A DNA stretch of 53,296 bases from Fibrobacteria bacterium (GTDB taxonomy: Bacteria > Fibrobacterota > Fibrobacteria > UBA11236): the NCBI GenBank assembly GCA_041746255.1, contig JBGTHM010000129.1, forward strand, positions 1 through 53,296. The letters run 5' to 3'. The number at the start of each line of letters is the position of its first letter. The first letter of the stretch is position 1. Positions 36,001 through 45,000 of the stretch are shown one piece after another. A program made the position numbers.

Positions 36001-39000
36001 AATACCCCGCCAGTTTACGGGCGAGTTGTCCCAGGCGTTGTGCATAGGCCGTCGCATCGGACGCGCCTTCGTCGAGGTAGGCGCGGATTTCGTCGGGAGG
36101 GTGGGTGAGGCACAGGCTCAAAATGAACCCTTCCAAACCTTGTTCGTCGAGAAGTCTCGCTGGTTTGCGATTGGCGGCTTCGCGTTCCACGTCGAGTTCG
36201 GCGAGGCGGCGCCATAATAGGCGCTCAAGCAACATGAAGTCGATATTGGCGGAAATCCCCAGCTTATCGGCCAACCGCATCTGCACCCAGCGGCGCATGC
36301 TGGGATTGGCGGTGGCAATATTCGGGGAGGCGAACGGGTCGTCCCAGGCCAGATTTTCGGCAAGCTTGTCCAGAAGGACGGCGGGTGAATTGCTGAAATA
36401 AAGTTGTGCCGGCATAATTTTTAGAGGTACCGCGCCCCCTCGAAGGTGGCGCAAGTACTGGCATCAGAAGCAGGAAAAGGTAGCAAAGCGCGGGGACAAA
36501 TTTTGACCCGGGAGGTGGGTTAGTTTTATGAAAGGCGAAGGGAGGGGGGCATCCGGGTGGCCCTCCGGGGCGGCGGTTGGACTTGCGATCCTTATTTTCA
36601 ATACTCTGGAAAATCGCATGAAAATTTTCATCAGTAGCGTCCAAAAGGAGTTTACAGCTGAGCGCTCGGCCCTGCGAGATTATTTGCGCAGCGACCCATT
36701 GATGAAACGATTTTTTGTCCCCTTCCTTTTCGAGGATTTACCGGCAAGTGACCAGCGCGCCGATGAGGTGTATTTGTCCGAGGTAGCCGCCAGTGACCTT
36801 TACTTAGGCCTTTTCGGAGAAGAATACGGCAGTACCGGTTCAAATAATATCTCTCCCACCGAACGCGAATTCGTACGGGCGGGTGAATTGGAAAAAACTC
36901 GATTGATTTTCGTGAAGGGGTCCGAAGACACCGGCAAACACCAAAAAATGCAGGCGCTGATCCGGAAGGCGGGTCACCAACTCATTCGGCGGCGATTTAC
37001 TTCGCTTCCAGAACTGATTATTTCCGTCTATGCCAGTCTGGTTGATTATCTAGCCTCCAAAGAATTACTGCGCGATGGTCCCTTTGACGCTGCGTGCCCA
37101 GCGGAGATTTCAACGGCGGATTTATCCTTAGAAAAAATTCGCCGTTTCGTGAAAATAGCTCAAAGAGCGCGAGGTTTTCCGTTTTCCGAAGATACAGACT
37201 CTGATGAAATATTGGAACATTTGAACCTCTTACACAAAGGGAGCCCCACCCATGCCGCCTTGCTACTATTTGGCTCCTCTCCCCAGCGGTTCCTGATTTC
37301 ATCCGAGATAAAATGTGTCCATTTTCACGGAAATGAGATTACCAAACCCATTCCATCCTATCAAGTTTACAAGGGGACGGTGTTTGACTTGGTGGATCAT
37401 GCCTTGGATTTCGTCCTCTCCAAAATCAATCTTTCCGTTGGCACTCGAAAACGCTCCGTCCAAGCGCCTGTGGAATATGAAATCCCCCCGGAAGCGGTAC
37501 GTGAAGCAATTGTCAATGCCGTGGCGCACCGCGACTATACCAGTAATGGGAGCGTTCAAATTATGCTTTTTTCGGACCGGCTTGAAGTTTGGAATCCTGG
37601 ATACCTTCCACCCGCACTGACCCTGAAAAAGCTTCGCCTTCCCCACGGATCGGTCCCCGGTAATCCGCTATTGGCTGAATCCCTTTATCTGGCCAAATAT
37701 ATTGAGCGCATGGGCACGGGCACAGGCGATATGATTAAGCTCTGTCGGGAGGCGGGCCTTCCTGAACCTGAATTTTTGCTTACGGATGGCTTCGTGGCCC
37801 GCATCCGCAGACAACCCAGCCGAGCCTTTACAGCTGTGGGGGGCAAGGGTGGTCCCCACTCAACAGGGGAAGTCACAGGGGAAGTCACAGGGGAAGTCGC
37901 AGGGGAAGTCAAAAAACTGATGCAAATCTGCAAGGGTGCAAAGACCCGTCAGGAATTACAGAACGTGTTGTCTTTGAAAAGTGAAGAAAATTTCAGGAAA
38001 CTGTACCTCACACCGGCACTTGAAGCCGGATACTTGGAAATGACCATCCCGGATAAGCCAAAAAGTAGGAAACAACAATATCGCCTCACTGCGAGGGGAA
38101 GGTTGTGGCTTGAAAGCAGTGTTAATGCGAAAAAATAACAAGGTGAAGGTCAACTCAAGAAAATGGGGAATAGGGTATTTCGTTTCGATGAGAGAGGATA
38201 TACCCTATCGCTTATAGACTGGCTATTGCTGGGTGATATACGCGCCCTGTGTTGAATCGGAAAACCGTGTGGAAGAAGGGACAAAACACCTACAGGCACG
38301 GATTTTCAATCTTCTGGAGGTGGAGCTTCTTGAGGAGGCAACTTGTAAGGATTACCCACAAGTTCGTCGCGATGGCGGCCGCCGCTGTGGCATGGTGTAA
38401 ACATGCCTCCGAACATGAGGCAAAGCCTGGGGGTAACCCCTGGAAATATCTGTTGATACCCCACGATGTCATTTCCGATAATAAAAACCTGCAAGGAGTG
38501 GCCGCTGGTTATTCTTGGGAGGCCCCTTAATCCGCAAATTTTCAAGGAGCTGGAAATTATCGAGCCCTTGGGGCATCATGAATGCACATACTGGTTACCG
38601 ATTAACTTGATAACTCGTCAAAAGAAAATTCATGAAAGCAGACAAGCCCAGCTCAACCGCACTATTTGTCGCCCATGGCTTGTTGTGGATTTCGAAGCAT
38701 CCCCGCCTGAGATGCGAAATTCCCCCGTTGATGGCCCAGATGAACGAGGAAATGGTCTCCCGAACCGGTCCGGGGTTATTTTCTGCTTCTGGCCGACTGG
38801 GGAGGCTGCTCCGCCATTGTAAAGCGGACTTGATGCAACGGGCGTCCATCCCGGGATTTTACCTGCATTTCGTAATGCGGAAGCGGTGCATCGAGAATTG
38901 GGTCCGGCTATCACTTGACGGAGGAATAGACCAGTTGGTGGTAATCGGGGCGGGATTCGATACGCTCAGCCTGAGAATGTTGACGGACTATCCATCCCTT

Positions 39001-42000: not shown

Positions 42001-45000
42001 AAGCCTATAAAACCCATTTCCTGGCCAAGGGGCAACGCGAAGGACAATTCAAGCCCCAGCTACTGCAATACAAAAAGGATATTCCCGGCGATTTTTTGGA
42101 GTCCTATTCGATATGAATCTCACCTCTCTGCAACTTCAATCCCTGCAAATCCCTTTCAAGGTAGGCTTTAAGCATAGCAGCGCCGATAGGAAAAAAGGCG
42201 AATCGCTCTTGGCCAGCGCCGAAACAGCGGCGGGAAATAAGGGGATGGGCGAAGGCTGTCCGCGCGGCTATGTAACGCATGAAGATTCCTCCGCAGGGTT
42301 TGAATTCTTTGAACGTTATCGCGAGGATTTGCTGCGGAGCATCCACACTTTCGGCGATCTCGAAGCATGGGTCTGGCGGCATGAGGTTGAAATAGATGAG
42401 CGGCCGGCGGCTTGGTGCGCTTTGGAGTTGGCCATTCTCGAGGCGTTGTCCAAGGATTTGTCACAGCCGGTGGAGGAGACTCTGGGCTTGCCTCCTTTGC
42501 AAGGGCGATTCCAATATACCGCTGTGCTCGGCGACTCTTCCCAGGAGGTGACGGCAAATCAGGTTTCCCGTTTCGCTCAATTGGGATTCCGGGACTTCAA
42601 GGTTAAAATCAGCGGAAATCCCCTGGTCGACAATGACAAATTCGCGGTTATCCAGTCTTCGGTAACGGATTCGCGTATCAGGCTGGACGGGAATAATCTC
42701 TGGCGAAAACCAGAGGAGGTTTTGGGTTACCTCAACGCGATCCGAATCACGCCTTTCGCAATCGAGGAGCCGCTGCAGGCCCTCGATTATCCTGGCATGA
42801 AAGCCCTGGTGAAGCAGACTCCAGTCGCGTTAATCCTGGATGAAAGTTTTCTTAATCGGAGTCATTTCGATGCAACCGTGGAATTGGGGAAGAAAGCCAT
42901 CATCAACCTCCGGGTCTCCAAGATGGGAGGGCTTATTCGCTCTCGGGCGATTGCTTCCCGGGCCGGGGACCTGAAAATACCCCTGATTATCGGCGCGCAC
43001 GTGGGCGAAACCAGCATACTGACACGCGCTGCTCTCTCCCTTGCTAATGCCTTCCGTGAGAACGTGCTGGCGCAGGAAGGAGCTTTCGGCACCCATCTTT
43101 TGGAATCGGATCTGGTTCATAACCCCTTAATGTTCGGTCGCGCCGGAATACTGGATAGTGCCGACTCTCTGAACCTAAGGGGAACAGGGTTCGGGCTGGA
43201 CTACCTGTAAAGCTTTCCCCCTCCTTGCTTTTTACCTCCAAATTGGTAAATATTTCCTGAGCCCTTAAAAAGGGCGGAAGGTCTTCATACAACCCATTTT
43301 AAGGAGTTACCCCGATGGCCAAGGAACGGAATACCAAGAAAGAAACCAAGAAGGCTCCCGCGAAAACCTTGAAGGAAAAACGCGACGAGAAGAAAACCAA
43401 GAAAGCGGGCAAGGGGAACAGTTAATCACCAGGCCGCTCTTAAGCGAGTCATGAAATTGAATCCCGCCCTCAAAGGCGGGATTTTTCTTTTTAACTCAAT
43501 CTTTAGGGTTCATATCATCTCCCGCAAACTCGGCGCAGCATGATCCAAGAATCGGGTAACATTCCTCGCACAACCACTCGCCGTCCGCTTTTTCCACAAA
43601 GCCCTCCTTGCCGCAACGTACGCAAGGGGGATTACTTGTTTTTTGGCTTAGGTCGTTATTTTTCTGCGGAAAGTCCTGTTGGGTCATAAAAGGTTATCTC
43701 CCGGCTTGTCAATGCCGTTAATAAGAGGTTAAATTCCAGCTGGTTCCCCCTCAAGAGAATAGATGAATTCCCTATGAAAAATATGTTTGTTATCGCGGCG
43801 ATTCTGTTAACCTTACTCGTATTGGCTGGAATTACCTGGTTCTTTCTGCTGGGGCGTAAATCAGCGGAAGCCCAGGCTCCGGGGATGGTCGCAGGCCGTC
43901 TTGCGCCCTGTCCGGATAAACCGAATTGCGTGAGCAGCGAATTCCCCGGGGATACGGCGCATTATATTCCCTTCATCGGCCATACGGGAGTCGATTCCGA
44001 ATTAGTCTGGGCGTTGGCGCATCAGGCGGTGAGGGAGGAAGGGGGAATACTTACTTCCGAAAATGAAAACTACCGATCTTATACGTTCACTTCGAGTCTG
44101 TTCCGCTTTGTGGACGATTTGGAATTAAGGAATGATCCGGAATCGGAATCCGTCCACATTCGCTCCGCCTCCCGAGTTGGCCATAGCGATATGGGCGTTA
44201 ACCGGAAGCGGGTACAGAGTATCTTGGACCGATTCGGTGTTTTGCTGAACGAAAACTAGAGCCAGACCAGAGCCGTAACTAGAACCAGTTGATTAGGCGG
44301 GAAGTTACCGCCTTACCCTGGGAGGATATCTGCAAGAGGTAATTGCCGGAAGGCAAATTGCCTCTCTCGAAACTGAGCTCATTTGTATTGAAATTTTCCG
44401 TAGCTACTACGTTTCCCCTCAAGTCCCGCAGGGTAGCCGTGAATTCACCGGCATAATCAACCTTCACAGTGAGAAGATCCGATTTCGTGATGATACGCAT
44501 ACGCTCCGGAAACTCCCTGAGAAAACGGGCGCTTTCCAATGCTGACACTGTATTGTATCCGGCGACGAACTCGGCTGCACGTAAAATAGTCAGCTTGAAG
44601 AAATCACTGCGGGCACCGGTAGCGGTGTGAATGATACCCGTATAGAAAATCCGACTTCCGTTAGTACTCTCGCGATACCACATTATGGGATGACGTTTTT
44701 CCACAGGGAGGCTCATCTGCTCAGCGTTCAGGTTGTTGTGCGTATGGGGTTTCAGGGAACTTTCGTCGATGTAATAGAGCACCTTGGCCTGTGCGAAAAA
44801 TGGGCCCTGATTGAAGGCATACCATTCATCCGAGGATTGGAACTGGTCGGGCATTCCCGTGAGGATATTCTTGCTATTCGGAAGGTCCAGAATGGATTGG
44901 TCCTTGGTCACGACCATTTTACCGATCTGGTTGCCGTGGTAGTTGGGATTGTAGGAGCCGATAATGATATTGGACCGATACCACTCCCAATCGCCTTGGC

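Follow-up and report, generated by a model that had tools for sequence, protein, structure and literature searches.

The only characterised bacterial GH3 pathway that we found in the literature searched is that of OlsH in Singulisphaera acidiphila, where OlsH acts with OlsG and OlsI (PMC12493201). On expression in E. coli, OlsH needed added free fatty acid. For the remaining clades of bacterial GH3 the authors anticipate other substrates, and the words hydroxylase, enolase and fusion are absent from the main text of their paper. A second enzyme of interest here is OlsE, which hydroxylates C4 of ornithine in ornithine lipid (PMC12971839). With regard to the enolase superfamily, published papers state that racemases and epimerases need the Lys at beta-6 as a base, and that the dehydration by o-succinylbenzoate synthase (OSBS) uses one base.

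The window, the whole 53,296-nucleotide stretch of Fibrobacteria DNA analysed here, includes a three-gene operon (Table 1). Its preliminary description was reproduced in full as regards the operon, the fusion, the scores and the layout, with three plus-strand open reading frames of 301, 860 and 365 amino acids and overlaps of 4 nt (ATGA) between neighbours. Promoter-like sites were seen 8 times against 4.5 +/- 2.0 in shuffles, and terminator-like sites are overall at chance level (8 against 8.5 +/- 3.4), but the transcript region likely ends around the hairpin listed in the table. We found no difference in GC content between the operon region and the window.

Table 1. Features of the operon region, in window positions
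Feature	Position	Strand	Remarks
Candidate sigma-70-like promoter, weak	38453..38482	+	10 of 12
SAM methyltransferase, LCM/TIGR00027 family, 301 aa	38632..39537	+	Pfam LCM, TIGR00027; optional cassette member
Oxidase-GH3 fusion ORF, 860 aa	39534-42116	+	Pfam FA_hydroxylase + GH3/GH3_M/GH3_C
Fusion N-terminal domain (residues 1 to about 300), a membrane di-iron enzyme of the His-box type, akin to OlsE but by sequence not OlsE	39534..40433	+	
Fusion C-terminal domain, about residues 321-860, predicted complete GH3 acyl-acid amido synthetase	40494..42116	+	
Enolase-superfamily enzyme (MLE subgroup fold), 365 aa, Arg267 replacing beta-6 Lys	42113..43210	+	
Terminator-like hairpin, 10 pairs + T run, 3' of small downstream ORF	43459..43484	+	

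The conserved unit, which we call the cassette, consists of oxidase, GH3 and enolase; the fused arrangement is just one of the forms in which oxidase and GH3 occur. The 120 homologues listed for the fusion all have both domains, as had been stated, and one (P0055) has MR_MLE_C in addition, but this list was ordered by full-length score and is for that reason enriched for fused forms. Split genes outnumber fused genes in both locus sets (37 to 10 and 29 to 16), and the fusion cannot be treated as the defining feature. Of the 48 GH3 loci, 44 have the enolase gene immediately 3' of GH3, and the remaining 4 run into a contig edge. In the reverse search, started from the enolase and counting loci with enough DNA, GH3 directly precedes the enolase in 70 of 71 and the oxidase is found in 41 of 41. 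Cassette parts are joined by fusions in several different ways. An assembly artefact is ruled out for the fusion by the like architecture of 119 other homologues among the matches listed, and frameshifts are ruled out as the origin of the split forms in L009 and L013, both of which have 4-nt stop/start overlaps. A few split loci (L003, L039) may be artefacts.

Trees of GH3 and of the enolase agree in recovering groups A, B and core C, type A being the kind of locus in the window. In the sister cassettes the oxidase is unrelated to the membrane His-box type or is missing. Type B uses a soluble heme-oxygenase-like di-iron oxidase, with the oxidase gene before the enolase and the enolase before GH3, and types C and D have hydrolase, SDR, enolase and GH3 genes in the same locus. 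There are 12 loci with GH3 and hydrolases and neither oxidase, and 17 of 33 regions in one phylum sample have the Arg-type enolase without GH3 within 5 kb, so that the enolase can have a role without oxidation. In loci that lack an oxidase there are patatin and as many as three Hydrolase_4 genes. UbiD is present in two loci. Among the genes next to the cassette elsewhere are those for patatin, Hydrolase_4, MMPL, P450 and a CAT-like acyltransferase; the nearest relatives (47-48%) are placed within fatty-acyl-AMP-ligase/PKS/condensation clusters. No family member was found in the plasmid searches. An enolase gene next to one for a DUF3463 radical SAM protein was seen at 3 loci, all without GH3, and a general link to hopanoids was rejected. 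Cultured carriers include Bdellovibrio sp. HCB337, identified by its locus, and Lentisphaera profundi and Gracilimonas sp., identified by a protein match. We found no description of the cassette in the literature searched, which comprised main texts and few subscription papers.

In the case of the GH3 domain, Pfam GH3, GH3_M and GH3_C extend over residues 327-845 with 188, 69 and 61 bits (cut-off 23.6), and plant GH3 structures match residues 329-841. The conserved motifs T409-K417, G631-E636 and G695-D703, which are the three nucleotide motifs given in PMC12493201, are all present together with the C-terminal K840. As proposed earlier, this half of the protein has the sequence of a complete acyl-acid amido synthetase, and ATP-dependent amide formation is predicted. 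The likeness to the OlsH system lies in the nucleotide motifs, in a methyltransferase in the operon, and in an alpha/beta-hydrolase there that has its parallel in the sister cassette loci. However the OlsH methyltransferase is of another family and there is no enolase or oxidase in that system, while the window operon has neither a hydrolase as counterpart of OlsI nor an O-acyltransferase. Against the NCBIfam OlsH model (NF052613, cut-off 620) the fusion scores 63.4 and a split-form GH3 93.5 bits; the OlsH-like proteins used for comparison score 366-436, and no protein in the 251-genome sample reaches the cut-off. The window GH3 is 22-24% identical to these OlsH-like proteins, stands on a branch separate from them in every tree (support 100), and 35 of 78 cassette-conserved GH3 columns differ in the OlsH-like majority. 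As to an ornithine-lipid synthase elsewhere in the genome, there is one weak Acetyltransf_5 match (23.8 bits) in a 606-aa frame.

The N-terminal domain is related to OlsE but is, by its sequence, not OlsE. Its FA_hydroxylase domain (residues 126-260; PF04116, 104.8 bits, cut-off 31) has nine His that are invariant in 113 fused homologues, H141, H145, H154, H157, H158, H212, H232, H235 and H236. The OlsE model (NF052566) is its best NCBIfam match, at 198.6 bits against a cut-off of 475 that two rhizobial proteins pass with 553.6 and 490.6 bits. Both rhizobial orthologues share the membrane His-box di-iron fold, with 36% and 33% identity to the domain. Of the 80 columns invariant in the oxidase they agree at 51-52, whereas two further hydroxylases encoded in this genome agree at 34-41. 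In contrast the window oxidase has other polar residues at 86, 134, 137, 179, 183, 211 and 249, with Q, D, R, Q and N for the OlsE-specific K, E, L, K and E at 86, 134, 137, 179 and 249, and differs also in being linked or fused to GH3. The closeness to ornithine-lipid synthesis that had been suggested is not borne out, as the OlsE and OlsH cut-offs both fail and GH3 is distant.

The methyltransferase is probably, to judge by its family, a carboxyl methyltransferase (Pfam LCM 108 bits; TIGR00027 133.6 bits, cut-off 93.55). Its place in the operon was correctly described for this locus, where it overlaps the fusion, but it is present in only 7 of the 92 type A loci, and is missing from the other 85 and from the locus of a same-genus genome. 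A 4-helix membrane protein is present in 74 of the 92, and the two never occur together. Aligned LCM orthologues adjoin those 7 type A and also 2 type B cassettes, and this recurrence of one family in separate lineages and both cassette types rules out a bystander. The capping slot alternates among LCM-type methyltransferase, ICMT-type methyltransferase and small membrane protein, and is, with the oxidase slot, one of two interchangeable positions of the cassette. LCM and ICMT are unrelated families, both named for carboxyl methylation, and it is the LCM name and the ICMT enzymes in the same slot that lead us to predict this reaction. The 4-helix protein, which was not found in this genome, has no Pfam family, matches only unnamed clusters in the Atlas, and gave no Foldseek match at E <= 0.001; its best VIA match (Z 8.0 over 63 residues) is within the range of common helical bundles.

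The enolase-family enzyme has the fold, KxK base (K163-x-K165, beta-2) and metal ligands (D192, E218 and D243 at beta-3, beta-4 and beta-5) of the MLE subgroup, with TM about 0.8-0.87. It differs from the known members in Arg267 at beta-6 in place of the second catalytic Lys and in the invariant residues H21, R26, R51, Y53 and E299, and it is under every family cut-off. A further invariant residue, E322, lies at or one residue off the MLE beta-8 Glu, and beta-8 ends in E-G-[AS]-[FY]-G. As judged from alignments, the beta-6 position is Arg in 41/41 close, 120/120 sister and 40/41 further homologues and Lys in 6/6 reference enzymes, and the Lys-type references occupy their own side of a branch in an enolase tree. 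Muconate cycloisomerase TIGR02534 gives 71 bits (cut-off 335), with no catabolic neighbours, and the two o-succinylbenzoate synthase (MenC) models give 67 of 201 and 63 of 131.

Our best reading, offered tentatively, is that the cassette makes a tailored N-acyl amino acid by way of amide formation, oxidation, one-base elimination or ring closure, and carboxyl methylation. It rests on the linkage of the genes, the agreement of the GH3 and enolase trees and the conserved beta-6 Arg, and agrees with the earlier view of an undescribed, widespread pathway whose probable substrate is an N-acyl amino acid, with GH3 and the OlsE-related di-iron enzyme both intact. The columns shared with OlsE orthologues and the relatives in fatty-acyl-AMP-ligase/PKS clusters suggest a lipid context, and the product of the three genes is most likely a modified fatty-acyl amino acid, probably as methyl ester. 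As the first step GH3 would adenylate a carboxylic acid in its free form, with a fatty acid the likeliest choice, and couple it to an amino acid; such chemistry is well founded. With O2, the di-iron domain would then introduce a hydroxyl or a double bond into the conjugate, the amino-acid part being the probable site, as with OlsE. The enolase may bind the free carboxylate on Mg2+, with Lys165 alone taking the alpha-proton; as the opposite Lys is lacking, elimination or ring closure is expected instead of racemisation, so that a beta-leaving group such as water would be lost to give an N-acyl dehydro-amino acid, or a ring would close. The invariant H21, R26 and R51 hint that the substrate has another anionic group, for example the side chain of an amino acid of Asp/Glu type. 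Finally the LCM-family enzyme would methylate the remaining carboxyl to give a neutral, diffusible ester, a step for which most other loci have the small membrane protein in the slot.

Several points count against this reading, among them the loci given above that have the Arg-type enolase without GH3 nearby or have neither oxidase, and the absence of the methyltransferase from most type A loci. A hydroxyl placed at C4, as by OlsE on ornithine, is not beta to the alpha-carboxylate as the elimination would require, and the soluble oxidase family of type B presumably takes small soluble substrates. Bacteria are known to make methyl esters of N-acyl amino acids (PMC6296433), but we found no gene link between them and the cassette, and the word dehydroalanine is absent from that paper. 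Methylated N-acyl dehydro-amino acids as a possible product class recall the N-acyl dehydrotyrosine pathways (NasY, ThiF, nitroreductase; PMC12479983), which however use wholly other enzymes, without mention of GH3, enolase or hydroxylase in that paper.

A possible though rather unlikely alternative is a ring-forming module by analogy with borrelidin. For the borrelidin starter unit the enolase-family BorE, GH3-like BorL and hydrolase BorF are assigned to synthesis of cyclopentane-1,2-dicarboxylate. In such a module the oxidase would supply an unsaturated (di)acid for the enolase, which would serve as carbocyclase or lactonase, with GH3 activating or conjugating and the methyltransferase esterifying, to give a jasmonate-like lipid signal with a cyclopentane or lactone ring. 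A Streptomyces plasmid region has a gene order and sizes that we take to be those of borI-borO, and its GH3 scores 128 bits against the window GH3 (67-85 for 10 OlsH-like proteins) and matches 58 of the 78 cassette-conserved columns, including K803/S806/R808 of the C-terminal motif, against 43 for the OlsH-like majority. The type C and D loci hold the same combination of hydrolase, enolase and GH3, with SDR, and the position of E322 is also in keeping. However the plasmid GH3 is only 25.6% identical to that of the window, an unrelated Streptomyces GH3 (117 bits) and the second GH3 of this genome (127 bits) score about the same, and trees do not settle its position. The borrelidin genes also differ in their PKS context and lack of a di-iron oxidase; what they would share with the cassette is GH3, an enolase-family enzyme and a hydrolase in one pathway, and the C-terminal GH3 motif.

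We think it unlikely that the enolase acts before ligation, dehydrating a free 3-hydroxy acid or shifting a double bond into conjugation, with GH3 conjugating the enoic acid. The patatin and Hydrolase_4 genes of oxidase-free loci could free fatty acids, and the type B gene order and the two UbiD loci are also in favour, but the three invariant basic cap residues would be better suited to a further charged group than to an alkyl chain, and the characterised relative of the oxidase works on an amino-acid head group.

On the reading that the preliminary description put forward as possible, the enolase would racemise or epimerise the N-acyl amino acid, and the hydroxylated lipid would have D configuration. 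This now looks quite improbable, and the enzyme is probably not a racemase given the replacement of the beta-6 Lys. The N-succinyl Arg/Lys racemase (2p88) is indeed the best solved match, but at about 22-23% identity it is tied with dipeptide epimerase and cycloisomerases, and no NCBIfam racemase or epimerase cut-off is passed. D-x-D at the end of beta-8, which we take to be the dipeptide epimerase motif, was seen in two references and is absent from the window enolase family.

A catabolic, detoxifying or cofactor role, such as conjugation of an external acid or a MenC-like step, is very doubtful. It would fit the patchy presence (5 of 61 relatives, 3 of 201 genomes in the sample of its own phylum) and the CocE/NonD hydrolase gene that adjoins 13 of the 92 type A loci, but we found no menD over cut-off in the genome, and no men genes, regulator or uptake system among recurring neighbours; the ATP-spending ligase and the methyltransferase also indicate synthesis rather than catabolism. 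Least probable is an OlsH-OlsE fusion protein that makes hydroxylated ornithine lipid, in favour of which OlsE as top match and the similar company of methyltransferase and hydrolase in the OlsH operon can be cited, against the OlsH score, the separate GH3 branch, the differing columns in both domains, the lack of an O-acyltransferase and an enolase left unexplained.

That two unrelated oxidases can stand in for one another, as can two unrelated methyltransferases, limits the chemistry to be considered. The Arg-for-Lys enolases form a large branch of the superfamily for which the database names 'dipeptide epimerase' or 'muconate cycloisomerase' are probably wrong. The locus is a compact bacterial GH3 case, with three genes, all catalytic residues intact and a family across many phyla. 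More speculatively, and with low probability, GH3 and the Arg-type enolase may be an old modular core forming rings or enamides, with plug-in oxidase and capping genes, that makes diffusible lipid-derived signals of a new class in many uncultured bacteria by an enolase reaction new to the superfamily. If true, this would be a bacterial parallel to the logic of plant jasmonate, with lipid release, oxidation, cyclisation, amino-acid conjugation and carboxyl methylation.

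The three genes of the cassette overlap by ATGA at each of the two junctions, as in the preliminary description, and the NCBIfam scores given there for the fusion were recovered (OlsE 198.6 against a cut-off of 475, OlsH 63.4 against 620). All 120 listed homologues of the fusion do carry both domains, in a list biased toward fusions by being ordered on whole-length score. An alignment of 113 fused proteins shows conservation of all nine di-iron histidines and of the GH3 motifs, which are those given for plant GH3 and OlsH in the available part of PMC12493201, and judged by sequence both halves look active. 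The gene immediately upstream of the cassette adjoins a set of three long, divergent genes resembling recC, recB and recD, and downstream a small ORF lies between the enolase gene and a terminator-like hairpin.

Coordinates of the cassette genes and of other features discussed (L numbers are loci collected from genomes)
Feature	Record	Position	Strand	Domains or content
LCM methyltransferase gene	window	38632-39537	+	Pfam LCM
Oxidase-GH3 fusion gene	window	39534-42116	+	Pfam FA_hydroxylase + GH3, GH3_M, GH3_C
Enolase gene	window	42113-43210	+	Pfam MR_MLE_C
Small ORF	window	43315-43425	+	lysine-rich, 36 codons, good ribosome-binding site
Upstream gene	window	36618-38138	+	DUF4062 + HATPase_c_4 + Fic-like C-terminal protein
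Four-helix protein gene	L009	7521-7958		
Second GH3 cluster, own genome	L054 (G000:C83)	7606-15433		
Arg-enolase without GH3	L196	4128-5999		beside Hydrolase_4-ketopantoate reductase fusion
Arg-enolase without GH3	L203	7060-9912		beside Hydrolase_4-ketopantoate reductase fusion
Streptomyces plasmid region	L216	3261-12398		record starts inside PKS genes

The predicted model of the enolase is confident (pLDDT 92.9) and about equally similar to epimerases, racemases and cycloisomerases, at 18-24% identity. K163-x-K165, D192, E218 and D243 are invariant, and H21, R26, R51, Y53, E299 and E322 are retained in both enolase clades, the residue assignments being based on alignments. At the end of strand 6 the cassette enolase has N-x-R-x-S-K, as against N-x-K-x-x-K in solved relatives. 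The arginine, Arg267, is present in 41/41 aligned close homologues (4 partial sequences excluded), 120/120 sister homologues and 40/41 additional loci (the other one was not parsed); the lysine is present in all six references, namely two annotated muconate cycloisomerases, two annotated dipeptide epimerases, E. coli MenC and an epimerase-like protein of the same genome as the window. With the lysine replaced in all close and sister homologues, the earlier proposal of a racemase or epimerase is probably wrong. Arg or Tyr may occupy this position in some OSBS subfamilies. In the available parts of bioRxiv 2022.03.03.481873 and PMC12006748 the strand-6 lysine is the second acid/base of racemases and epimerases, and in OSBS merely a cation-pi stabiliser, the chemistry being done by one lysine. 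On alignment Arg267 fits a cation-pi stabilising role and would not fit an acid/base role. Removal of a proton alpha to a carboxylate is common to the whole enolase superfamily (PMC7246345, part available), and the substrate would thus carry a free carboxylate.

The oxidase-GH3 fusion is real, but it is not the defining feature it was first taken for, as split genes outnumber fused ones both in the loci found with the fusion protein (37 to 10) and in those found with the enolase (29 to 16). Among the 53 fusion-search loci, about 21 of them from Nitrospirota and so not independent, oxidase is present in 52, GH3 in 48, enolase in 44, a small four-helix membrane protein in 35 and a methyltransferase in 5; GH3 without enolase occurs in 4, all stopping at a contig edge, and in 4 cyanobacterial loci the oxidase is alone, in clusters of another kind. 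The reverse search started from the enolase and covered the 80 top-ranked of at least 594 metagenome loci. Where these have enough DNA, GH3 is immediately upstream of enolase in 70/71 and oxidase present in 41/41; the four-helix protein is in 25/27 and a methyltransferase in 0/80. There are also triple fusions, of four-helix protein, oxidase and GH3 (homologues P0017, P0066 and P0107) or of oxidase, GH3 and enolase (P0055), and 5 of 23 long proteins scanned join the four-helix protein to a CocE/NonD hydrolase. Because of the split genes, other fusions and co-occurrence we treat the pathway as the unit, and the oxidase-GH3 fusion as just one form of it. The cassette is patchy, in 5 of 61 relatives and 3 of 201 genomes of a sample from its own phylum.

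A weaker match in a genome of the same family is a sister cassette with a PF14518 heme-oxygenase-like di-iron protein, an Arg-enolase, a GH3 36% identical to that of the window and a divergent methyltransferase (33%). A profile of both enolase clades matched 7/251, 35/251 and 6/251 genomes in three phylum samples, and 40 regions from the first two (7/7 and 33/35) were examined; in one sample 17 of 33 regions have no GH3 within 5 kb of the enolase. With all loci pooled, at least one contig being counted twice (L004 and L174 agree in length and content) and kin not being independent, there are 92 of type A (membrane oxidase, GH3 and enolase), 6 of type B (soluble oxidase and enolase, GH3 in 5) and 12 of types C/D (Hydrolase_4, enolase and GH3, neither oxidase); patatin is found in several of these last, and SDR, AMP ligase and UbiD in two. 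The capping slot of type A is filled by LCM without the four-helix protein in 7 loci and by the four-helix protein without LCM in 74; 0 have both and 11 neither (in the same order 5, 53, 0 and 5 of the 63 wide-flank loci). That of type B holds LCM in 2, an ICMT/PEMT membrane methyltransferase in 2 and neither in 2; ICMT is likewise present in L173, which is cut off upstream.

In the GH3 tree, from a quick search, A, B and core C each form their own branch (support 99-100), and are joined at 96, separate from 10 OlsH-like proteins. Groups A, B (together with its sisters), core C and D are recovered in the enolase tree, where the lysine-type references all fall on one side of a branch. Near neighbours in the GH3 tree differ in accessory genes: the window and L001, with LCM, are beside L142 and L143, with the four-helix protein, and a second case is L005 and L007 beside L018. 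Evidently GH3 and enolase are co-inherited, and oxidase and capping genes swapped.

Several loci have further genes. L005, L007 and L018 (Bacteroidota) have an extra P450 and a CAT/2-oxoacid-dehydrogenase-type acyltransferase; in L018 there are MMPL and a further hydroxylase as well. The oxidase-free L182-L190 have a MinD/ParA-like gene, up to three Hydrolase_4, Arg-enolase, GH3, patatin and an FHA protein, and L204 and L210 one block of SDR, hydrolase, GH3, Arg-enolase, AMP ligase, UbiD and FAD oxidoreductase. In L191, L193 and L194 an Arg-enolase without GH3 adjoins a DUF3463 radical SAM gene. The four-helix family (alignment A2) has invariant R, Q, Y, Q, R and H in the membrane, occurs fused to oxidase or CocE/NonD hydrolase, and numbers 1230 representatives at E <= 0.001; it matched neither a Pfam family nor a known fold.

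With regard to ornithine lipids, the relationship of the oxidase to OlsE holds on sequence comparison, but an ornithine-lipid route does not, the window GH3 being 22-24% identical to the OlsH-like set as against 28-38% to types B-D. At 35 of 78 conserved columns it departs from the OlsH-like majority, that set scoring 366-436 bits against the cut-off of 620, so that true OlsH is absent from the comparison. Two proteins above the OlsE cut-off are 33-36% identical to the window oxidase; they share 51-52 of its 80 invariant columns, and two other hydroxylases of its own genome 34 and 41. It differs from OlsE at polar positions 86, 134, 137, 179, 183, 211 and 249. Outside the cassette its nearest relatives (47-48% identity) come from cyanobacteria, in clusters that also encode fatty acyl-AMP ligase, PKS with condensation domain, aminotransferase and P450s, which is again a fatty-acyl amide setting. 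L022, L027, L030 and L050 are cyanobacterial loci with a close oxidase relative, fatty acyl-AMP ligase-ACP, KS-AT-condensation protein, class V aminotransferase, P450s and Asp/Asn beta-hydroxylase, without GH3. The second GH3 cluster of the window's own genome has a divergent GH3, two B12-binding radical SAM genes, a gene of no assigned function, a fatty acid hydroxylase, a gene without family and GNAT, with enolase absent, and seems to encode a distinct lipid pathway that has not been described.

We suggest, as the likeliest of the readings considered, that GH3 would join fatty acid and amino acid, the oxidase would hydroxylate or desaturate the conjugate, the enolase would carry out a one-base elimination or cyclisation, and the methyltransferase would esterify the carboxyl last, because the enolase requires it free. 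The product is probably some tailored acyl amino acid; the four steps as a whole are put forward more tentatively, with oxidase-free and GH3-free loci, the soluble type B oxidase and the C4 regiochemistry of OlsE (PMC12971839, part available) against them. Roseobacters make N-acyl amino acid methyl esters (PMC6296433), and other bacteria N-acyl dehydro-amino acids by unrelated enzymes (PMC12479983); in the available parts of both papers we found no tie to the cassette genes.

The main rival, ring formation by the cassette, we consider unlikely. Bearing on it is a Streptomyces plasmid with P450, aminotransferase, dehydrogenase, GH3, F420 oxidoreductase, FAH-family and ThrRS genes after a PKS, which from gene order we take to be the right arm of the borrelidin cluster. 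That cluster includes the enolase-family BorE and the hydrolase BorF. The plasmid GH3 agrees with 58 of 78 conserved columns, but is just 25.6% identical and has no clear placement in the trees. The borrelidin starter is cyclopentane-1,2-dicarboxylate (PMC13386636, part available). The borrelidin connection is no more than a lead.

We found no description of the cassette or its parts in the literature searched, most subscription papers being outside its scope; the available part of the OlsH paper (PMC12493201) does not mention any hydroxylase, enolase or fusion, and its supplements or accession list may include clade members. We class the cassette as a form of GH3-based acyl amino acid synthesis in which an uncharacterised branch of the enolases is central.
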